From an uncultured Candidatus Saccharibacteria bacterium (GTDB lineage Bacteria > Patescibacteriota > Minisyncoccia > Phycocordibacterales > JAKFXT01), in contig CAYLPX010000002.1 in assembly GCA_964385825.1 (NCBI GenBank), forward strand, positions 98,876-162,875: a stretch of 64,000 bases of DNA, given 5' to 3'. Every line of letters starts with the position of its first letter. The first letter of the stretch is position 1. The notes below the pieces were generated by a model. It made no database searches, was not told the origin of the DNA, and saw only the letters and a list, made by a program, of their open reading frames with translations. Both the position numbers and the translations under genes were made by a program. Positions 3,945-40,900 of the stretch are shown here, piece after piece.

Positions 3945-4956
3945 TATTACTCCCCTGAAGCTTCTTTTGCTTACCTTGTTATTTTCCTTCCCCTTATTTT
4001 CTTTTGCACAAACAAATACAGCGGGGACTTCTTCACTTACCCCATACACAGAGGGGGTGAGTACTGTGGTGAGCCCCGAAAACCCTGGCCCTGGTAGTTT
4101 GGTTACTATCGATCTCCAGAGTTCCTTGGTTAACCTTGAAACCTCAACTATTGTTTGGAGCGTTAATGGTAAAGTGATTCAGTCCGGTCGTGATAGTAGA
4201 TCATTCTCTCTTCGCCTTGGTGCAGTTGGAAGTAAGAGTGTTGTTGATATTTATATTAAAACCACTACCCTTGGGACCCTGACTAAAACTTTAACTTTTG
4301 CCCCGACTAGTGTTGAACTCCTTTATGAAGCTGCTTCCTACACACCACCTTTCTATAAAGGAAAAGCACTTATACCATCAGAGGGCGTGGTTACTCTTTA
4401 CGCACTCCCAAACTTTAAATCAAATTCGGGGGCTACTCCTTCCTCAAACCTTGTTTTCACTTGGAAAAAAGATGGCGTAGTTGATGGAACTAATTCTGGA
4501 CTTGGGAAAAATAGTTATCGTTATGTTAATGGCAGGCTTCCGGAAGATGGTCCAACCATTGAAGTTTCGGTTACTGACCCCGCTACCAACCTTCGTGGCT
4601 ACGCTAGTTTTGCTGCCAAAGCAGTAAACCCTGATATTGTTTTCTACGAGAATAACCCCCTTCTTGGCGTCACCTTAAATCAAGCCATACCTTCTAACTA
4701 CACACTCACCAAACAAGAGCTCTCGTTAATAGCGTATCCCTTCTTTTTTGGTACAAAGAACCGCACCAATCAAAACCTTACCTATACATGGAACATTAAC
4801 AATAATCCTGTTCCAAGCAGTACCGATGATAAAGGGTTACTTACGGTGAGAAGTCCTGGAGGGAAGGGGGTGGCTAATATTGGTCTTGATATTGAGAACA
4901 AGACCCGCATTCTCCAAACAGCTTCTGGTATAGTATCTGTAAGTTATGGACAATAA
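3910..4956 (+). CDS. secreted protein of the T4SS-like cluster
   Basis: The N-terminal signal peptide is LLLLTLLFSFPLFSFAQT. The mature part is Thr/Ser/Asn-rich and beta-rich. Confidence 0.4.
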   Translation: MKFISPQTLNTNITPLKLLLLTLLFSFPLFSFAQTNTAGTSSLTPYTEGVSTVVSPENPGPGSLVTIDLQSSLVNLETSTIVWSVNGKVIQSGRDSRSFSLRLGAVGSKSVVDIYIKTTTLGTLTKTLTFAPTSVELLYEAASYTPPFYKGKALIPSEGVVTLYALPNFKSNSGATPSSNLVFTWKKDGVVDGTNSGLGKNSYRYVNGRLPEDGPTIEVSVTDPATNLRGYASFAAKAVNPDIVFYENNPLLGVTLNQAIPSNYTLTKQELSLIAYPFFFGTKNRTNQNLTYTWNINNNPVPSSTDDKGLLTVRSPGGKGVANIGLDIENKTRILQTASGIVSVSYGQ

Positions 4957-10315: not shown

Positions 10316-11410
10316 ATGAAAATAGAATGTAATAAAGATAAGTTACAAGAATTTGTAACTAAAATAGAAAAAACAACTAGCAGAAATGCCACATTACCTA
10401 TACTTGCTTGTATTCTTCTTGTTGCAAAAGATAAAACTCTGACACTCAAAGCAACCAATCTTGAAGTTGGTAGTGAGTTGGTGCTCCCAGTGAAAATAGA
10501 AAAGGAGGGGGTGGTGGCTCTTTCAGGGAGCATGCTTTCTCAAACTCTCTCTTCTTTAAAAACAACCAAAAGCCTCTTTTTAGAAGAAAAAGAGGGGAAT
10601 TTAGAGTTAAAAACAAACGAAACAACTGTTTTATTAAAAACAATAAGTTACGAGGATTTTCCTCTTATTCCGCGCATAGAAGCTGAAACAAAAATAAAGA
10701 TTAAAGTAAAGGAGTTAATTTTAGGTATAAAGTCAGTGGTAAACAGTGCTGCACTTTCAACTATACGACCAGAATTAGGGAGTATTTATATTTATCAAGA
10801 AACAAATACTCTTGTTTTTGTGGCAACAGACGCTTTTCGTTTGGCTGAGAAAAAGATTGTTGTAAAACAAATAGAACAATTCCCCTCTATTCTTATTCCA
10901 TATAAAAATGCTTTAGAGATCGTACGTCTTTTTGATGGGGTAGATGAAGAGGTAGATCTTTTAATTACTAAAAACCAAATAAGCCTTGAGGGAGGAGGAG
11001 TTTTTATAACTTCTCGAGTAGTTGATGGAGTTTTTCCGGATTATACCCAAATTATACCAAAGGAATATATAACTACGGTATTAGTTCTAAAGCAAGATAT
11101 ATTAAATGGAATAAAAAGTCTTTCGGTTTTTTCAGATAAGTTTAACCAGATCCTTTTTACAGTTCATAAAGAAGGGGTTACTTTAGAAACAAAAAACAAT
11201 GATGTGGGGGAAGGGAAGACGTTAATTGTGGGTAAGGTAACTGGCGAAACACTTACACGTAAGTTTAACCAAAAATATATTACTGATGCATTTTCTACTA
11301 TAACTGATGATTCAGTTTTACTGTCTTTTGCCGATGAAAGAAAACCGTTAGTGATAGAAGGGGCCTCAAATAAAAGTTTTAAATACTTGGTGATGCCGAT
11401 GAATAATTAA
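10316..11410 (+). CDS. dnaN: DNA polymerase III beta sliding clamp
   Basis: A 364 aa three-domain beta-clamp pattern lies immediately after dnaA. Confidence 0.85.
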   Translation: MKIECNKDKLQEFVTKIEKTTSRNATLPILACILLVAKDKTLTLKATNLEVGSELVLPVKIEKEGVVALSGSMLSQTLSSLKTTKSLFLEEKEGNLELKTNETTVLLKTISYEDFPLIPRIEAETKIKIKVKELILGIKSVVNSAALSTIRPELGSIYIYQETNTLVFVATDAFRLAEKKIVVKQIEQFPSILIPYKNALEIVRLFDGVDEEVDLLITKNQISLEGGGVFITSRVVDGVFPDYTQIIPKEYITTVLVLKQDILNGIKSLSVFSDKFNQILFTVHKEGVTLETKNNDVGEGKTLIVGKVTGETLTRKFNQKYITDAFSTITDDSVLLSFADERKPLVIEGASNKSFKYLVMPMNN

Positions 11411-25603: not shown

Positions 25604-25880
25604 CTTGAGAAAAAACAGTGCCTGCGCACTGTTTTTTGCTACAAGTCCGAGGCGGAGCGATGTTTTTACAGTAGTAAAAACCGCGAGTCGTGGTCAAGGG
25701 ATTTTACGAGCGACGGCGAGTAAAATATTCGTGACGACGTAGCCTGACTATCAGAAAAGTACCCGCGACGGTAGTCGAGATCCCTGCTGTAAAATTGTGA
25801 GCCGGGGTCGCGAGATTTTTCTGTCAGGAAAAATACTTGTGACGACAAAAAACAGTGCCTGCGCACTGTTTTTTAATGAC
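25604..25880 (+). repeat. tRNA-flanking structured repeat, copy A
   Basis: It is bounded by two identical A6-CAGTGCCTGCGCACTG-T6 hairpins (25610-25637 and 25847-25874). It contains GAGCGACGGCGAGTAAAATATTCGTGAC, AAAAGTACCCGCGACGGTAGTCGAGAT and ATTGTGAGCCGGGGTCGCGAG, all shared with copies B-D. Confidence 0.6.
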
Positions 25881-31461: not shown

Positions 31462-31495
31462 CAAAAAACACCCGAGAGGGTGTTTTTTGTTTTAG
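31462..31495 (+). terminator. rho-independent terminator
   Basis: AAAAAACACCC-GAGA-GGGTGTTTTTT. Confidence 0.6.
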
Positions 31496-31559
31496 GGGTG
31501 CTCCACGCTTCTAATTGAACCAGCATCGTCTCCTTCGCTCCCAATAGCTTTCTTGTAAG

Positions 31560-31631: not shown

Positions 31632-31916
31632 TTGGTGGGGCAGGGGTTAGTAGGAATCTCGACTACCGTCGCGGGTACTTTTCGACTTCATTCTTCGGCT
31701 GCCTTGAATTCAGTAACGAAAAGTCTTTCGATTCCTGCACGCAAGCAAAGCAGTTTGCTTGCTCTCGGAGCCCTTTCAGGTGTCACAGATAAATTACTCG
31801 CCGTCGCTCATAATTTTCCGCGACCCCGCCTCGCAAATTTGCTTGCTAGCAAATTATAGCTCCGGCCGGACTCGTAAGTAAAAAGAGGTGCGCAGGCACC
31901 TCTTTTTACTTACGAG
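31632..31916 (-). repeat. tRNA-flanking structured repeat, copy B (between two tRNA-Arg genes)
   Basis: A 21 bp-stem hairpin CTCGTAAGTAAAAAGAGGTGC-CTGC-GCACCTCTTTTTACTTACGAG (31871-31916) abuts the tRNA 3' end. It also contains TCCGGCCGGAGCTATAATTT, AAATTTGCGAGGCGGGGTCGCGGAAAATTA, GAGCGACGGCGAGTAATTTATCTGTGACAC and AAAAGTACCCGCGACGGTAGTCGAGATTCCT. Confidence 0.6.
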
Positions 31917-32485: not shown

Positions 32486-32574
32486 AAGAGTAGTTTAGCA
32501 TGAGGGGAAAGAAAATTTATTTAGAATAAGTACAAAGCGGAGGTGGTGAGATTTTTAATAACTAAGTCTTACAG

Positions 32575-32659
32575 CGGAGGCGGTGAGATTCGAACTCACG
32601 GTACCTTGCAGCACTCCTGTTTTCAAGACAGGTGCGATAGACCACTCTGCCACGCCTCC
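32575..32659 (-). tRNA. tRNA-Ser (anticodon UGA)
   Basis: Manual fold: acceptor GGAGGCG/CGCCTCC, anticodon loop CTTGAAA, long variable arm, T-arm GTGAGTTCGAATCTCAC. Confidence 0.8.
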
Positions 32660-33572: not shown

Positions 33573-34694
33573 ATGGCTTTTAGCTATTCCTCACACAGAC
33601 GAATGCATTCAGAAAAACCTTTTTTTCGGGTGTTCCCCCCACCAGAGTTATTACTCATGCCATCAGTTGGACTCGATATTTCAGAGCATACCGCACGTTT
33701 TGTAGAACTAGTTACCAAAAAGGGCAAAATACAAATAGGAAGGCATGGCGAACAGGTTATACCTGAGGGGACATTTTCACTCGGGGAAATTAAAGATGTT
33801 GGGACACTTCGAAGTGCACTTATTGCCTTGCGTCGAGAATACGACCTTTCTTTTGTGCGTGTTTCATTGCCAGAGGAAAAGGCCTATCTATTTCGTACTG
33901 AAGTCCCTCATTTAAGCCCAGAGGAAACAAGAGAGAACATTGCTTTTCAGCTCGAAGAGCATGTGCCGATTGGAGCGGCTGATGCGGTGTTTGATTACAG
34001 TATTGTGAACCCGCTCTTTGGGAAGATTAGTGCTTCTATGCGGGAGGTGGTGGTTTCTGTGTTCCCAAGGAATTTTATTGAAAGCTATATTTCAGTATTG
34101 GATGGAGCAGGGCTCACCCCACTATCGCTTGAAATGGAAGCTTCAGCCATGGCCCGTTCACTAGTGCCACAAAACAATCTTAAGACGTACATGATCGTTG
34201 ATTTTGGCTACAAGCGAACAGGAATCATTATTGTTAGTCGGGGGGCGGTGCATTTATCAACGACCGTGGATATTGGGGGAGAGGCGTTGACAGAGGCGAT
34301 AGAGAAAAAACTTTCGATAAGCCGCGATGAAGCAGAAAACTTAAAACGAGAAGGAGCCTTTTCGCGCAATGGGCGATATCGAGAAATGTTCCCACTTCTT
34401 ATTGAGTCTATACAAAGTCTGAAAGATCAGGTGAATAAACTCTTTATTTACTGGCACAACCATCCCGACAAAAAAGATGCTACACCACCCCCTATTGAAA
34501 AAATTATTTTAACAGGAGGGGATGCTAACCTTGAAGGGCTTTCAGATCATTTTGCGCTGGCTATGCGTGTACCAGCCGAGGTAGGGAATATTTGGAGTAA
34601 TGTACTTCACACTGAGGAAGATGTACCGAGTATTCCGTTTACTGAGTCACTATCATATGCAACAGCGGTGGGGCTCGCTATGCGCGACCTCTAA
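33573..34694 (+). CDS. pilM: type IV pilus assembly protein PilM
   Basis: An actin-like ATPase fold (VGLDISEHTARFVEL, IVDFGYKRTG), followed by pilN/pilO-like genes. The true start may be the internal Met at 33657. Confidence 0.7.
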   Translation: MAFSYSSHRRMHSEKPFFRVFPPPELLLMPSVGLDISEHTARFVELVTKKGKIQIGRHGEQVIPEGTFSLGEIKDVGTLRSALIALRREYDLSFVRVSLPEEKAYLFRTEVPHLSPEETRENIAFQLEEHVPIGAADAVFDYSIVNPLFGKISASMREVVVSVFPRNFIESYISVLDGAGLTPLSLEMEASAMARSLVPQNNLKTYMIVDFGYKRTGIIIVSRGAVHLSTTVDIGGEALTEAIEKKLSISRDEAENLKREGAFSRNGRYREMFPLLIESIQSLKDQVNKLFIYWHNHPDKKDATPPPIEKIILTGGDANLEGLSDHFALAMRVPAEVGNIWSNVLHTEEDVPSIPFTESLSYATAVGLAMRDL

Positions 34695-34706
34695 TATTTC
34701 TGATAT

Positions 34707-35234
34707 ATGTACAATTTACTACCAGATGAACAGAAAGATGCTATTAAAAGAGAGTATCATTTTCGCGTGGCCATCATAGCGTCGCGGTTCGTATTACTTG
34801 CTACTATAGTTGGCTTTGTATTTTTGATACCATCTTTTGTACTTCTTTTTACTAAGCGTTCAGAACTAACGGACCAGATAACAGCGAGTGAGCGAGTGCA
34901 GGCAGAAACAACGAAAGAGGTTTCAGTAGATAGTACCAAGCAGCTCAATGAAGAAGTTGAAATATTAAAAGGGGTTAATCTTGACGCGCACCCAGAAGAG
35001 CTTATTAAAAAAGTTTTCGACAGCAGACCCAAAAATATTCAAATAAGCAAAGCGGTCTATGGACTAGTTGGGACGAGTAGTTCTGTTTCTATAGAAGGGG
35101 TGGCTAATAGCATTGATGATCTTCTTGTATTTAAAAAGGTACTTCTCACTATTCCGCCCTTTAAGTCGGCAACTTTCCCAGTAGAGTTATTAACTAAGCG
35201 GAGTAATGTTTCATTTGTAATAACTGCTCAATAG
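34707..35234 (+). CDS. pilN: PilN-like bitopic membrane protein
   Basis: A single N-terminal TM helix and a coiled coil, in the position after pilM. Confidence 0.5.
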   Translation: MYNLLPDEQKDAIKREYHFRVAIIASRFVLLATIVGFVFLIPSFVLLFTKRSELTDQITASERVQAETTKEVSVDSTKQLNEEVEILKGVNLDAHPEELIKKVFDSRPKNIQISKAVYGLVGTSSSVSIEGVANSIDDLLVFKKVLLTIPPFKSATFPVELLTKRSNVSFVITAQ

Positions 35235-35244
35235 ATAAAGCTGT

Positions 35245-35787
35245 ATGCAACTTTTTGAACGAACAAAACGAGCTTTGATACTAAATAGTGTAATCCTATT
35301 GCTGTTTATTGGTGGTTTTTCTGGGGTGGTGTACTATTTCTTTTCTTTACATGATGAGGTTGCCGCTCTTGAAGCAAAAGTTGCGGAGGTGAAAAGTAAT
35401 GAGGAAGACATGGCAACTTTAAAGAAAAATCTGCAGGATGTTTCGGGTAGTAAGGATGCATTAGAATCACTTTTTGTAACAAGCGACAACGAAGCTGATT
35501 TTATAAAATCACTTGAAACGCTGGCTAGCTCTACTAATGTGGCACTTGATATAACCGCACTAAGGCACGAGGCGGGGCCGGCAAAATCTCGTTTTGAATA
35601 TGTAACTGTGCAGGGGAATACGGTGGGCAAACTTTCTGATGTGTATCGCTTTTTAAACTTACTCAGCCGTTTTCCCAAAGCTCTTGAAGTAAAGCAGTTG
35701 CAGCTTGAACTTATGCCAAGTGATGAGAAGAAAAAAACACATGAATGGCGAGGCAGCTTTAATGCAAAGGCACTTAAAATAAAATAG
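35245..35787 (+). CDS. pilO: PilO-like bitopic membrane protein
   Basis: A single TM helix, a coiled coil and a C-terminal domain, in the position after pilN. Confidence 0.45.
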   Translation: MQLFERTKRALILNSVILLLFIGGFSGVVYYFFSLHDEVAALEAKVAEVKSNEEDMATLKKNLQDVSGSKDALESLFVTSDNEADFIKSLETLASSTNVALDITALRHEAGPAKSRFEYVTVQGNTVGKLSDVYRFLNLLSRFPKALEVKQLQLELMPSDEKKKTHEWRGSFNAKALKIK

Positions 35788-35788
35788 T

Positions 35789-36121
35789 ATGGAGATGACA
35801 ATAGAAAAATTAAAAGCACTATTTAAAAAGGAGGGGGTTGTTAAGGAACGTAAGCCCTCCAGGAATCCATATCGAGATTGGATTATTATCTTCGTGTGTG
35901 GAGTAGTACTTTGCTTTTGTATGATGCTTGGGGCAGGGTATGTTTTTCTCGGAGTTAAGAGCGGAACACTTTTTGATGTTGCTGAACAAAGTAGTGCAAC
36001 GAAGACAAAAGATTTCAACGAAAAAAGTTTAATCCAAGTACTCAGTCTTTATAAAGCAAGAGCAGACGAGTATCAGGGAATAATGAGTTCTAAACCAGCA
36101 ATTGCCGATCCATCGCTCTAG
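35789..36121 (+). CDS. small membrane protein (possible PilP-like)
   Basis: A 110 aa protein with one TM helix, translationally coupled to the pilO-like gene. Confidence 0.3.
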   Translation: MEMTIEKLKALFKKEGVVKERKPSRNPYRDWIIIFVCGVVLCFCMMLGAGYVFLGVKSGTLFDVAEQSSATKTKDFNEKSLIQVLSLYKARADEYQGIMSSKPAIADPSL

Positions 36122-36138
36122 TGGTAGCCTAAGATCGA

Positions 36139-36210
36139 CTCCCCGTAGTTCAATGGATAGAACAGGAGACTTCTAAGCTTCTGATCGTGGTTCGATTCCA
36201 CGCGGGGGGA
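36139..36210 (+). tRNA. tRNA-Arg (anticodon UCU)
   Basis: Manual fold: acceptor CTCCCCG/CGGGGGG, D-arm GTTCAATGGATAGAAC, anticodon loop CTTCTAA, T-arm CGTGGTTCGATTCCACG. Confidence 0.8.
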
Positions 36211-36363
36211 GAGAGCAGAGCGAACGAGACCCGCGTGGAATCGAACGCGAAAGGGGTCGGGAAAACTGTAGTTTTCCCGTGGAGGAAGGCAAGGAGCGAA
36301 GCGAGTGTCGGAAAACCGTGGGTTTCCGAGGAGTGAGATAGCGAAGCGTCCACGCGGGGGGAC
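36211..36363 (+). repeat. att-like scar at the tRNA-Arg 3' end
   Basis: The tRNA 3' end CACGCGGGGGGA (36200-36211) recurs as a direct repeat at 36351-36362. An inverted copy of the T-arm/acceptor, CCCGCGTGGAATCGAAC, sits at 36229-36245. Hairpins GGGAAAACTGTAGTTTTCCC and CGGAAAACCGTGGGTTTCCG lie in between. Confidence 0.55.
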
Positions 36364-36590
36364 TTTATAGCAAAAAACAGTGCACAAGCACTGTTTTTTG
36401 CTATAAAGTCCGGCCGGAGCTATATTTTCTCAGTCGAGAAAATTGCGAGGCGGGGTCGCGGAAATTTTGTTTTGACGAAAACAAAATTATCTGTGACACA
36501 GAAACTGGCCGGCCGGAACGAGTGGCGACGAGCTTTTATCCGTGACAGAGCGTGATGAAAATATTAAACGCCCCCGAAGGGGCGTCAGTT
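36364..36590 (+). repeat. tRNA-flanking structured repeat, copy C
   Basis: A 22 bp-stem hairpin CTTTATAGCAAAAAACAGTGC-ACAA-GCACTGTTTTTTGCTATAAAG (36363-36408) is followed by TCCGGCCGGAGCTATATTTT, AAAATTGCGAGGCGGGGTCGCGGAAATTTT and ATTATCTGTGACACAG. Confidence 0.6.
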
Positions 36591-36797
36591 GAAGTATACC
36601 CACCAAAGTAGGCACCACGCGAGGCTAAGTGGAACGATTGCGATACCACTTGCCCAGCAAAAGAACACAAGACCCGTCCCCCAAAGGGAACCAATGACCC
36701 CCGCTATGAGTCCGAAGAAAATTGCGAGAACCAGGATGCCGAGGAGTGGTCCCCAGAACTCCCCCCTCTCCTTAAAATAACGCATTACTCTTGCCAT
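36585..36797 (-). CDS. foreign high-GC 70 aa two-TM micro-protein
   Basis: MARVMRYFKERGEFWGPLLGILVLAIFFGLIAGVIGSLWGTGLVFFCWASGIAIVPLSLAWCLLWWVYFN. A GGGGATGGGG RBS lies upstream, and a GC-rich terminator ACGCCCC-CGAA-GGGGCGT overlaps the stop. Confidence 0.35.
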   Translation of the reverse strand: MARVMRYFKERGEFWGPLLGILVLAIFFGLIAGVIGSLWGTGLVFFCWASGIAIVPLSLAWCLLWWVYFN

Positions 36798-36837
36798 AAC
36801 CCCATCCCCCAATTGGTTTAAGAAAGCTGACAGTGTG

Positions 36838-37158
36838 TCACTGCTCGATGGTGCGGAAGCGTGGCATACCCCTCTTGATAAAGAAGGTTTGGAACTCCCC
36901 CCTTTTGTCCACTCTTCGCCAGCCGTAGTGCGTTTCCTCGAGAATTCCTGCAGCAACCATTGCCCGGAGTCGCTTGAGGAGAGAGGGATTCCGTGCGGTT
37001 GAAACCCCGATTTCATTTGGCAAAACCCACGACCTCCTCTCACCTTTTTTTGGCCAGTCGTGTGGCCGCCAGGGTGGGCGCAGATCACCGGCTTTGTTGA
37101 TGGCTTCCACGATTTTCTTCGTGGGGGAACGGGCAGTAACGGGAGGGTTTATCCTCAT
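36838..37158 (-). CDS. foreign high-GC basic 106 aa protein (possible DNA-binding)
   Basis: An AGGAG RBS lies 6 nt before the ATG. The protein is Arg/Lys/Trp-rich (WRPHDWPKKGERRSW...LKRLRAMVAAGIL) and sits in a GC-rich island. Confidence 0.4.
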   Translation of the reverse strand: MRINPPVTARSPTKKIVEAINKAGDLRPPWRPHDWPKKGERRSWVLPNEIGVSTARNPSLLKRLRAMVAAGILEETHYGWRRVDKRGEFQTFFIKRGMPRFRTIEQ

Positions 37159-37205
37159 GATCTACTCCTCTATTTACTAGACTGTGAATCAGGATACACT
37201 CGATT

Positions 37206-37991
37206 ATGGCTAAGTCAAACCATAAACAAATTGCTATAATTACCTCTATGTCAAAAGCAACGCGTACGCTCTCATTTCTTGCGGGACTAGTACTCCTTTG
37301 CCTTCTTTTGGGGATTACGTTCGGGCGGGAAAAAATAATGGAAGGACTAGTGTCTTTAGCACTTTTGTATCTTTCGGTGCTTGTGTGGCGAACTAAGCAA
37401 AAGTTATGGCTCGCTTTTTTCATCACTATGCTTTTGGTACTTAACCCATTCTTCCCACCCCTCACACTTTCATTATTTTCAATTAAGTTACTGTACCTTG
37501 CAGTACTTCTCGGTGGCGGTAAGTTTTTCTATGAGTACTACAACGGTTATCGTAAAGGTGCACAATTTGAAAATTTCGTTTGCTCACTGTTCAAGCCAGA
37601 AAGTTGGGTAGTAGAAGATAGAACTAAGGATTGGTCACATAAGTTGAGTCGCCCTGTTGAATCAGATCAAAATCCTGATCTTATTCTACGAAATAAGAAA
37701 ACAGATAAACGGGTTGCTATAGAGTGTAAGTTTAGAACAAGAGTTTGGAGTGATGGGGGCGTGACCGGAATAGTGTGGCCAAAAGAATATGCCGACCGAT
37801 ACAAGAAATTCGCTGAGGAAAAAAAGATTCCGGTGTATATCGCTTTTGGCCTCGGAGGGAACCCGAAAAGCCCCAATGAGCTTTTCTTAGTGCCTCTTGA
37901 AAGGGTTGCTGCTTATGAAGGGAAAATAATTCCTGCTCAATATTTGCGCGAATTTAAAAAGAATCCGCAATTTGAAGTTAGTTTGGGGTAG
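37206..37991 (+). CDS. membrane-anchored PD-(D/E)xK nuclease-like protein (Mrr_cat/NERD-like C-terminal domain)
   Basis: Four N-terminal TM helices are followed by a C-terminal domain with GAQFENFV, NPDLIL and AIECKFR, which together form a D...ExK signature. Confidence 0.5.
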   Translation: MAKSNHKQIAIITSMSKATRTLSFLAGLVLLCLLLGITFGREKIMEGLVSLALLYLSVLVWRTKQKLWLAFFITMLLVLNPFFPPLTLSLFSIKLLYLAVLLGGGKFFYEYYNGYRKGAQFENFVCSLFKPESWVVEDRTKDWSHKLSRPVESDQNPDLILRNKKTDKRVAIECKFRTRVWSDGGVTGIVWPKEYADRYKKFAEEKKIPVYIAFGLGGNPKSPNELFLVPLERVAAYEGKIIPAQYLREFKKNPQFEVSLG

Positions 37992-37999
37992 TCTCGGCC

Positions 38000-38205
38000 A
38001 AGAACACTTTTCTTTTTGTGGTCACGAATATTTTACTCGCCGGCGCTTATAAAATCTCGCCTCACTTTGTGGCCACAGATAATTCATTTGCCGTCGCAAA
38101 TGAATTTCCGCGGCCCCGGCTCGCAATCGCTCGTACTCTCGCGATATAGCTACGCCCCCCACACAATCAAAAAACCTGCCGCAGGGCAGGTATTTTTGTA
38201 TTGTG
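38000..38205 (-). repeat. tRNA-flanking structured repeat, copy D (3' of tRNA-Val)
   Basis: In tRNA orientation: a CACACAATACAAAAATACCTGCC-CTGC-GGCAGGTTTTTTGATTGTGTG hairpin abuts the tRNA 3' end. It is followed by ATTGCGAGCCGGGGCCGCGGAAATTC, ATTATCTGTGGCCACA and GCGCCGGCGAGTAAAATATTCGTGAC. Confidence 0.6.
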
Positions 38206-38278
38206 TGGGCGATACAGGACTCGAACCTGTAACCTACTCAGTGTAAATGAGTTGCTCTACCAATTGAGCTAATCGCCC
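38206..38278 (-). tRNA. tRNA-Val (anticodon UAC)
   Basis: Manual fold: acceptor GGGCGAT/ATCGCCC, D-arm GCTCAATTGGTAGAGC, anticodon loop TTTACAC, T-arm ACAGGTTCGAGTCCTGT. Confidence 0.8.
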
Positions 38279-38415
38279 CTACAAAACGGAAAACCGTCTG
38301 TTATCTGGAGAGCATAGTGTATTTTAGGCATTCCGGCAAGGGAGGTTACCTTTCGTGTGGGGTTTTGTTCTAGTAGTATCTACTCTGCGGTAGATTGTTG
38401 TAGAATAGTCAGATT

Positions 38416-40710: not shown

Positions 40711-40900
40711 CAACGAGCGGAGTGAGTTGGTGACAAGGAGTACGGTGCCTGCGCACCGTACGTGGGGGACGAGAAAACCTTGAGTATATCGGAGCGAGCG
40801 TCTGCGCGAAGTGAGATACGAAAGGTGTACAGAAATTGTAAATTTCGAGTCCTTTGAGCGTTGGAACATATCTGTGACCGAGTCCTTACATTTTATTTTA
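40711..40900 (+). repeat. tRNA-flanking structured region, copy E (more diverged)
   Basis: The hairpin GTACGGTGC-CTGC-GCACCGTAC has the same GCCTGCGC core as copies A and B. GAGTGAGATACGAAAGG and ATATCTGTGACCGAG resemble motifs in copy C. Confidence 0.4.

Follow-up and report, generated by a model that had tools for sequence, protein, structure and literature searches.

We analysed a 64,000-nucleotide (nt) stretch of DNA from an uncultured Candidatus Saccharibacteria bacterium (contig CAYLPX010000002.1 of assembly GCA_964385825.1, positions 98,876 to 162,875), referred to here as the window. Our subject is the segment between two of its transfer RNA (tRNA) genes, together with a folded repeat of about 86 nt, which we call element E, that lies behind each of them. 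tRNA-Arg(UCU) (anticodon tct; 36139..36210, + strand) has no encoded CCA and scores 56 bits against the Rfam tRNA model; tRNA-Val(UAC) (anticodon tac; 38205..38278, − strand) scores 75.8 bits, and ARAGORN calls both genes. Three open reading frames (ORFs) of 70, 106 and 261 amino acids (aa) lie between them, and positions 36100-37200 have a G+C content of 52-57% compared with 43% for the whole window. The tRNA genes on opposite strands, the ORFs and the GC-rich stretch had all been recognised in an initial annotation of this DNA, which suggested that the interval is an integrative element in decay or a small defence/toxin locus, one that had lost its integrase and carried the GC-rich gene pair and a nuclease gene as cargo.

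The 3′ end of tRNA-Arg(UCU) is indeed duplicated. Its last 14 nt (TCCACGCGGGGGGA, 36197-36210; 12 nt in the initial annotation) recur on the + strand at 36349-36362, giving two matches in the window where 0.01 would be expected by chance, and there is no third copy. The inverted T-arm/acceptor copy noted earlier at 36229-36245 is a perfect 17-nt inverted repeat between 36190-36206 and 36230-36246. We compared the site with two related contigs, L007 and L011, which were reached through the nuclease protein (orthologues 76% identical in L007 and 54% in L011) and whose tRNA-Arg(tct) is 100% identical to that of the window. In both relatives, the tRNA passes directly into a hairpin and then into E, and window positions 36349-36464 align by blastn to the tRNA 3′ end, hairpin and E of L007 and L011, so that the counterpart of the second 14-nt copy in the relatives is the 3′ end of the tRNA itself. 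By this alignment, the window carries an extra 152 bp that L007 and L011 lack, made up of a 138-nt insert (36211..36348, + strand) and the 14-nt duplicate, and the view of the scar as an insertion footprint at a tRNA 3′ end holds. The insertion is recent and belongs to the window's lineage only. Because the insert contains the inverted T-arm copy (36230-36246) and a degenerate E-like core (~36247-36282, GCGAAAGGGGTCGGGAAA..TCCCGTGG; the likeness to E was read directly from the sequence), we regard it as a decayed member of the E family; its tail ends in ..GAGTGAGATAGCGAAGCG. The empty site of this unit would read GGTTCGATTCCACGCGGGGGGA joined straight to CTTTATAGC.

A second pair of filled and empty sites was found at tRNA-Arg(gcg), where shared blocks are 147 nt apart in the window and 21 nt apart in L007; the gap in the window is occupied by a unit of hairpin and E (31781-31915) that is missing from L007. 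A metagenome scan with the tRNA-Arg(UCU) 3′ end recovered the L011 contig only and no further relative or empty-site allele, and contigs of the same species were identical to the window or differed by at most one mismatch, with no within-species polymorphism readable. A second att-like scar lies in the window at tRNA-Ser(tga), whose 3′ end (AATCTCACCGCCTCCGCT) recurs 37 nt further on with a single mismatch (32536-32553 and 32573-32590, − strand). No element stands between these copies, which are perhaps the remnant of a lost unit.

A genuine duplicate of a tRNA 3′ end is what an island between the two tRNA genes would lead one to expect, but only 138 nt of non-coding DNA lie between the two copies; the genes are outside them. 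The structured repeats C and D, one near each end of the segment, are real and related to each other: they share the core ATTGCGAGSCGGGGYCGCGGAAATT, which has a third copy at 31813-31837. They are not, however, the ends of one element. Each stands in the trailer of its own tRNA, and they face each other because each follows its own tRNA, a convergent arrangement that also speaks against an island. Both are intact copies of E. Repeat C (36413..36498, + strand, GCCGGAGC..GCGAGGCGGGGTCGCGGAAA..TTATCTGTGAC) scores 91.8 bits (E-value 1e-17) with R1, our covariance model of E, and repeat D (38071..38156, − strand, the strand of tRNA-Val) 86.6 bits (E-value 1.5e-16). R1 found two further full copies in the window, one behind tRNA-Arg(gcg) (31781-31866, − strand) and one behind tRNA-Lys (25651-25736, + strand), as well as a weaker copy (25767-25844, + strand). 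All four full copies lie just downstream of a tRNA and on its strand. Two half-elements consist of the second hairpin only: one in the tRNA-Val trailer (38024..38060, − strand; R1 positions 46-82, 23.7 bits, E-value 0.003), which is 90% complementary to 25700-25738, and one at 36519..36547 (+ strand, GAGTGGCGACGAGCTTTTATCCGTGAC) with 96.6% identity to the second hairpin of the L007 element.

Alignment of 42 copies showed E to be a unit of two hairpin domains. The first has a 3-bp closing helix (GNC/GN′C), an internal loop (GGA//GA), a short GC(G)/CGC stem and a variable hairpin; the second is a long hairpin of the form GUCGCGR-AAA-(variable stem, often ending GAGCGACGGCGAG)-UUAU-YYGUGAC. The consensus ends are GNCGGAGC and TTATCYGTGACC. 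In a MAFFT alignment that was not fitted to the model, RNAalifold predicted 31 pairs, with compensatory changes in 18 of them (for example, pair 2-43 is GC in 17 copies, CG in 16, AU in 7 and UA in 2). When R1 was run over the window and 100 sources, it gave 127 hits across the 100 sources. Among 126 distinct copies, 95.8% of cells were paired compared with 76.0% in shuffles and 34-52% with slid partners, and 28 of the 31 pairs were compensated, values reached in none of 500 shuffles, in an alignment (A3) that was fitted to the model and therefore favours the modelled pairs. About 253 of 3,443 cells in the pairing table were G·U, and pair 92-211 was G·U in 118 of 124 copies. A near-invariant G·U argues that selection acts on the fold of the tRNA-sense strand alone, whether this is RNA or single-stranded DNA. 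E is thus a conserved folded single-strand element, and these data do not separate the two forms.

We could not find a description of the E family in Rfam 15 or in the literature. With gathering thresholds, Rfam 15 detected only tRNAs in the whole window, and at E-values up to 5 it gave no credible match to repeats C and D or to the scar in 36100-38300; in 18 related loci, only tRNA, transfer-messenger RNA (tmRNA), ribosomal RNA and, elsewhere, one group I intron were reported. The literature search, which included the core sequence itself, found no described Patescibacteria tRNA-trailer motif.

To map its distribution, the pattern GCGAGNCGGGGYCGCGRAAA was run against one genome per prokaryotic species and gave at least 119 loci. 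Nearly all of those listed are metagenome-assembled genomes (MAGs) of Patescibacteria and a few are high-GC chance hits, a taxon range that, like the conservation of the core, is biased by the exact 20-nt core pattern used for ascertainment. The motif was present in Saccharibacteria, Paceibacterota and Taylor-, Nomura-, Lloyd-, Niyogi-, Kaiser-, Yonath-, Adler- and Zambryskii-bacteria. At about 60 loci, it lay 40-220 nt behind a tRNA of the same strand, and the identities of these tRNAs were highly varied. A same-strand tRNA or tmRNA was found within 300 nt upstream of 77 of the 127 R1 hits (median gap 63 nt) and a same-strand tRNA downstream of 13, whereas an opposite-strand tRNA or tmRNA was present within 300 nt of only nine; 17 hits were at contig edges. 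In six loci where the tRNA-only scan saw nothing upstream, Rfam showed that E follows tmRNA, and at least four hits beyond those counted above stand behind a tmRNA gene recognised by Rfam.

Copies of the tRNA itself frequently flank E. An upstream tRNA was present for 65 copies. In 28 of these, E runs directly into a stretch of at least 9 nt identical to the tRNA 3′ part (permuted control, 0.9%), and this direct copy, X, begins at T-loop position 56. In 22 of the 65, at least 8 nt of the reverse complement of the tRNA 3′ part precede E (X′; control, 4.6%). CCA is present in X only where the tRNA gene encodes CCA, and X may extend beyond the tRNA 3′ end (37 nt in L095; in L063, a whole terminator is included); the flanking copies are therefore copies made at the DNA level. 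An origin from mature tRNA (retro) is ruled out by the dependence of CCA on the gene.

Two layouts were observed. In the T-loop layout, the order is hairpin, X′, E and X; in the 3′-end layout, to which C and D of the window belong, tRNA and E are separated by a terminator-like hairpin (H), in which the final 3-5 nt of the tRNA are paired to the outer stem. Of 121 copies, 43 have a hairpin with CTGC in its loop on their upstream side, compared with 1 of 121 control windows. The hairpin of tRNA-Arg(UCU) (36355..36416, + strand) has 29-nt arms that are 93% complementary and a terminator-like core, A6-CAGTGC-ACAA-GCACTG-T6, which recurs twice after tRNA-Lys. GGA of the duplicated tRNA end is paired within its outer stem, which in L007 and L011 is wholly different in sequence and still paired. 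The CTGC-loop hairpin of tRNA-Val (38158..38209, − strand) consists of a terminator-like core, ACCTGCCCTGCGGCAGGT, followed by a T run, with an outer stem that pairs with the tRNA 3′ end. A terminator scan listed the tRNA-Val site (38191-38174, − strand) as an intrinsic terminator; the tRNA-Arg hairpin has the same terminator form (CAGTGC-ACAA-GCACTG-T6), yet was not listed. In L011 (9600-9719), three tandem 40-nt repeats lie directly upstream of tRNA-Arg(tct), each starting with CTCCCCGTAG, the first 10 nt of the tRNA; repeats therefore accumulate at the 5′ border of the tRNA too.

Further trailers in the window contain related material. In the tRNA-Lys trailer (25607-25880, + strand), near-identical 31-nt terminator-like hairpins (25607-25637 and 25844-25874) bracket the full E at 25651-25736 and the weaker one at 25767-25844, and the T-arm fragment ATCCCTGCTG recurs at ~25779-25790. 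A second type of core, element 2 (...GAAAAGTACCCGCGACGGTAGTCGAG), is present in the window at ~31640-31735 (− strand) and in L007 at ~10960-11040 and ~4060-4130 (both − strand). It is framed by a CUGC hairpin, an inverted T-loop copy (GCAGGAATCGAA) and, after the core, ATTCCT as a direct copy. No match to the 14-nt tag of element 2 was found outside this species group. The tRNA-Leu(gag) trailer (40712-40888, + strand) has a GTGCCTGCGCAC hairpin, GGGGGACGAGAAA and ...ATATCTGTGACC followed by GAGTCC from the T-loop; it has no R1 score and is probably a decayed unit. Downstream of tRNA-Arg(ccg), at 31490-31558 (− strand), a diverged copy of the T-arm/acceptor half of that tRNA, GATGCTGGTTCAATTAGAAGCGTGGAGCA, was read by eye.

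These observations leave room for E to be a functional non-coding RNA, transcribed as the 3′ trailer of the tRNA or tmRNA or from its own promoter. Such an RNA could act as a module for processing or stability, or as a switch between two pairings of X′, one with the 3′ half of the tRNA and the other with X as a decoy, and the flanking copies would then have been selected for pairing and not left by insertion. The strong covariation, the near-invariant G·U and the conserved internal-loop nucleotides are what one would expect of an RNA, as is the resemblance of the GGA/GA and GA/GA loops to tandem sheared G·A motifs; the strict co-orientation of E with tRNA and tmRNA, its presence in many Patescibacteria lineages and the 3′ processing that tRNA and tmRNA have in common point the same way. 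However, a terminator-like hairpin and T run usually separate the tRNA from E, and DNA duplication more easily explains an X that includes flank outside the tRNA and even whole terminators. Close relatives gain and lose units and shuffle their order, X copies decay in tandem arrays, and no Rfam family matches. Weighing both sides, we consider the RNA explanation rather unlikely, but it is a serious rival.

Most likely, E marks small non-autonomous cassettes at the 3′ ends of tRNA and tmRNA genes. The two convergent tRNA genes of the segment each have a trailer built from a modular Patescibacteria repeat family, in which H (often with a CUGC loop) is sometimes followed by X′, then by the ~86-nt E and often by X directly after it. 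By the mechanism that we infer, units of this kind would enter tRNA and tmRNA genes at the T-loop or the 3′ end, by insertion or recombination, and since the cassette would bring a replacement 3′ end, often with a terminator, the gene would be left intact. The displaced old 3′ end would remain downstream, and repeated events would stack in tandem. The scar at tRNA-Arg(UCU) is one such unit, a degenerate 138-nt member plus the 14-nt duplicate of the tRNA end, inserted in this lineage alone, and the genes between the trailers, the resident nuclease gene and two small GC-rich genes, are chromosomal. Recognition may be by a recombinase supplied in trans that acts on the folded single strand X′-E-X. 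More specifically, it is possible, though not probable, that an undescribed cassette system with integron-like logic exists mainly in Patescibacteria and has the folded single strand X′-E-X as its attachment site. Its cassettes would attach to tRNA and tmRNA genes at the T-loop or 3′ end and stack behind these genes, most of them as empty mini-cassettes and some with genes.

Arrays and gene cargo were observed at two other loci. In L016 (5668-6648), tmRNA is followed by two E units that form a 168-nt direct repeat and enclose the gene of a 166-aa membrane protein; the farther a copy of the tmRNA end lies from the tmRNA, the more decayed it is. In L013 (259-5483), tRNA-Gln and an E unit stand 5 kb apart, and the E unit is followed by the tRNA-Gln 3′ end. 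The 5-kb segment contains the gene of a periplasmic binding protein as well as hypothetical genes, and no recombinase was found in it. These patterns resemble tandem accretion at tRNA and tmRNA attachment sites.

Several points weigh against a cassette interpretation, in addition to the fitted alignment and the exact search pattern mentioned above. About one quarter of the E copies have no detected upstream tRNA or tmRNA, and no long X follows E in the intact copies C and D of the window. The unpaired core positions are highly conserved, which fits a functional RNA too. The core motif had no match in viral contigs, and no recombinase or transposase partner of E was identified: fragments of serine recombinases occur near E in only three of ~130 loci (L011, L045 and L122), and XerD-like matches are distant from E elements. 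For the membrane nuclease encoded in the segment, domain orientation and activity are themselves only predicted. In L011 (10830-12007), a copy of E and an inverted copy of a tRNA-Val 3′ end lie beside a broken large serine recombinase gene, of which N-terminal and zinc-ribbon fragments are present, split by a NUDIX gene; this contig has no tRNA-Val.

E units resemble several known systems in part. Integrative elements that target tRNA and tmRNA genes have integrase-less derivatives, such as cis-mobilisable elements (CIMEs), and tandem accretion at tRNA-Lys occurs in streptococci. For tmRNA, ssrA-specific islands are reported in Dehalococcoides (PMC2764846), and the miscategorisation of partial tRNA genes as tRNA genes is the subject of another report (PMC9897764). 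E units share with these integrative elements the tRNA and tmRNA targets, insertion at the T-loop or extreme 3′ end, a 3′ copy that restores the gene with the displaced copy downstream as a direct repeat, tandem arrays and occasional gene cargo. They differ in their size of ~130-250 nt, in having no associated integrase, in their sequence-conserved, covarying two-hairpin core and inverted target copy, and in standing behind many different tRNAs of one genome. Group I introns have been described in Patescibacteria tRNA genes at position 35/36 (PMC13011429). They are ruled out here, as the elements are downstream of complete tRNAs and the region has no Intron_gpI match. TIGR-Tas arrays were also compared with E and do not fit.

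Recombination sites formed by a folded single strand are known from integron attC and from the folded attP of CTX phage. Like these, E folds on one specific strand into an imperfect hairpin that has mismatches and bulges and whose structure is kept by compensatory change, and its cassettes stack at a single attachment point; pairing between X′ and X would restore the target as a duplex. Unlike in attC, the central part of E is conserved in sequence and not variable, attachment is at the tRNA T-loop or 3′ end, and no integron integrase is nearby. The consensus ends of E (GNCGGAGC and TTATCYGTGACC) contain no GTTRRRY, and the RYYYAAC/GTTRRRY core sites of attC were not found; apart from three unrelated loci, tyrosine-recombinase probes had no matches beside E elements.

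REP/BIME, ERIC, Correia, RUP and BOX are structured intergenic repeats of bacteria. E is similarly short, non-coding, folded, present in multiple copies, located downstream of genes and variable between close relatives, but differs in its preference for tRNA and tmRNA 3′ flanks, its fixed orientation, its target-derived flanks and its occurrence mostly in Patescibacteria MAGs. E could be a REP/BIME-like or IS200/IS605-type miniature element (palindrome-associated transposable element, PATE), moved as single-stranded DNA by an HUH enzyme (RAYT/TnpA) that would recognise the hairpins, with the conserved GGTTC of the T-loop as target. Such an element would account for the strand-specific fold with G·T pairs and a bulge, the conserved hairpin loops, the intergenic location downstream of genes and the junction at T-loop position 55/56 in many copies. 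We nevertheless regard it as highly improbable, since such elements are not known to copy or exchange 14-37 nt of the target and the consensus of E shows no characteristic GTAG/REP features. No HUH gene was seen beside any copy, although no search was aimed at HUH genes.

The largest of the three genes between the trailers encodes the putative membrane-anchored nuclease (37206..37991, + strand). Its longest ORF has 261 aa, but translation probably starts at ATG 37248 to give a product of 247 aa, as all nine retrieved homologues start at the aligned M15. An extended −10-like box, TGCTATAAT (37232-37240), lies 7 nt upstream of this ATG; L007 shares this box, and in L011 the variant TGCTATACT stands in its place. 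The protein is thus probably translated from a nearly leaderless mRNA. The initial annotation had proposed four transmembrane helices and a PD-(D/E)xK nuclease-like domain. An AlphaFold2 model (mean predicted local distance difference test, pLDDT, 79.8) has four predicted helices followed by an alpha/beta domain, and the nuclease assignment stands at the level of fold and motif: the catalytic signature E122, P157-D158 and E173-C174-K175 is invariant in all ten members of the family, and the family profile aligns to the active-site motifs of Can2. The top Foldseek matches were Hjc (2wcw, 2eo0, 1gef, 1hh1), RecU and restriction enzymes, with E-values down to 1.8e-4; residues ~134-250 superpose on Hjc with a Foldseek probability of 1.0 and a TM-score of 0.6-0.74 on the target. 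No curated family model scored above threshold, including the Mrr_cat, NERD and Cap4-like nucleases suggested earlier, and the Pfam matches to Mrr_cat_2 (E-value 0.054-0.17), PDDEXK_11, PDDEXK_15 and TnsA_N were all sub-threshold. DUF6804 was found in the N-terminal part of six of the ten family members. We therefore predict a membrane-tethered, Hjc-like PD-(D/E)xK nuclease-like protein, and the charge distribution suggests that the nuclease domain faces the cytoplasm. It has the fold and the E..PD..ExK motif in common with known minimal PD-(D/E)xK nucleases (archaeal Hjc, RecU, Mrr-type, Can2), but in contrast to these it is fused to an N-terminal four-helix membrane domain (DUF6804) and has no CARF, helicase or methylase partner.

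Only ten homologues of the nuclease were found in 5.8 billion proteins. In both L007 and L011, the gene lies behind a pilM-like cluster and tRNA-Arg(tct), and its base composition is local, unlike that of the GC-rich pair. It is a lineage-specific resident gene of the chromosome. The pilM-like block itself (33573-36121, + strand) comprises a pilM-like gene (Pfam PilM_2 on an identical gene) and membrane-protein ORFs of 175, 180 and 110 aa, the last three with no Pfam match. It lies directly upstream of tRNA-Arg(tct) and is kept in both relatives; its nearness to the nuclease gene may or may not matter. A distant paralogue of the nuclease domain, P0007, is encoded in L136 (1-10150) in a block of hypothetical genes beside a phage-type integrase; it has a lipoprotein signal, an Excalibur-like ectodomain, one transmembrane helix and the nuclease.

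The two remaining genes are both GC-rich and on the − strand. The 70-aa protein with two transmembrane helices (36585..36797, GC 52%) is followed by a terminator-like hairpin (36567-36586); its gene is called on the same-species contigs that cover it, and a likewise GC-rich homologue in L007 is 47% identical over 60 aa (E-value 2e-9). No family match was found in Pfam, PADLOC or PHROGs. The gene of the 106-aa basic protein (36838..37158) has a GC content of 55.5% and a G+C content at third codon positions (GC3) of 0.62. A word-indexed search with this protein returned only itself, whereas exhaustive phmmer found 27 homologues of similar length with conserved motifs; together with the confident AlphaFold2 model (pLDDT 92.4), this rules out a spurious ORF. 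The family has no Pfam entry, and the protein is possibly winged-helix-like (weak HxlR-type match, E-value 0.089). The 106-aa gene is absent from L007 and L011. Three of its homologues stand alone among housekeeping genes, so the 70-aa and 106-aa pair is not a recurring module. Both genes are real and were gained or lost within the lineage.

The gene content allows the island to be judged further. In its favour are the GC3 of 0.58-0.62 in the GC-rich genes compared with 0.38 in the neighbouring gene, the absence of the 106-aa gene from both relatives and of the 2-TM gene in one, the location of the distant nuclease-domain paralogue in a region with a phage integrase, and the existence of cargo-bearing units elsewhere (L016, L013). 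The comparison with the two relatives, however, found the nuclease gene syntenic in L007 and L011, the 70-aa gene in L007 only and the 106-aa gene in neither. The same gene order in relatives had been set beforehand as the observation that refutes an island, and this is what we see for the nuclease gene, whose base composition is also local; a decayed integrative element spanning the whole interval does not agree with a gene that holds the same place in both, and for this gene the island is already largely refuted. The homologues of the 106-aa protein have neither a 2-TM nor a nuclease partner. As stated in the initial annotation, no integrase remains: Pfam found no integrase or recombinase domain in the three ORFs or in both neighbouring genes, and serine- and tyrosine-recombinase probes had no tblastn match in the window. 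PADLOC matched none of the three proteins to any defence-system model, and PHROGs gave only a weak RusA-like match. We therefore think an island very unlikely, and the segment is probably ordinary chromosome with small repeat elements. The initial annotation was accurate in its observations, with minor corrections, and mistaken in its frame: this is neither a tRNA-bounded island nor a defence locus.

For annotation, this means that partial tRNA-end repeats in Patescibacteria should not be taken as island borders by default, as many of those in this lineage belong to a family of folded elements of ~86 nt. The membrane-tethered Hjc-like nuclease and the 106-aa family add two more uncharacterised, lineage-restricted proteins. 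Very small genomes nonetheless keep many copies of E behind essential single-copy tRNA and tmRNA genes. If E is mobile DNA, this would be a case of selfish DNA that colonises essential genes harmlessly, and it would point to a further recombination system; if E is RNA, it would represent a new and widespread RNA class tied to the 3′ ends of tRNA and tmRNA.

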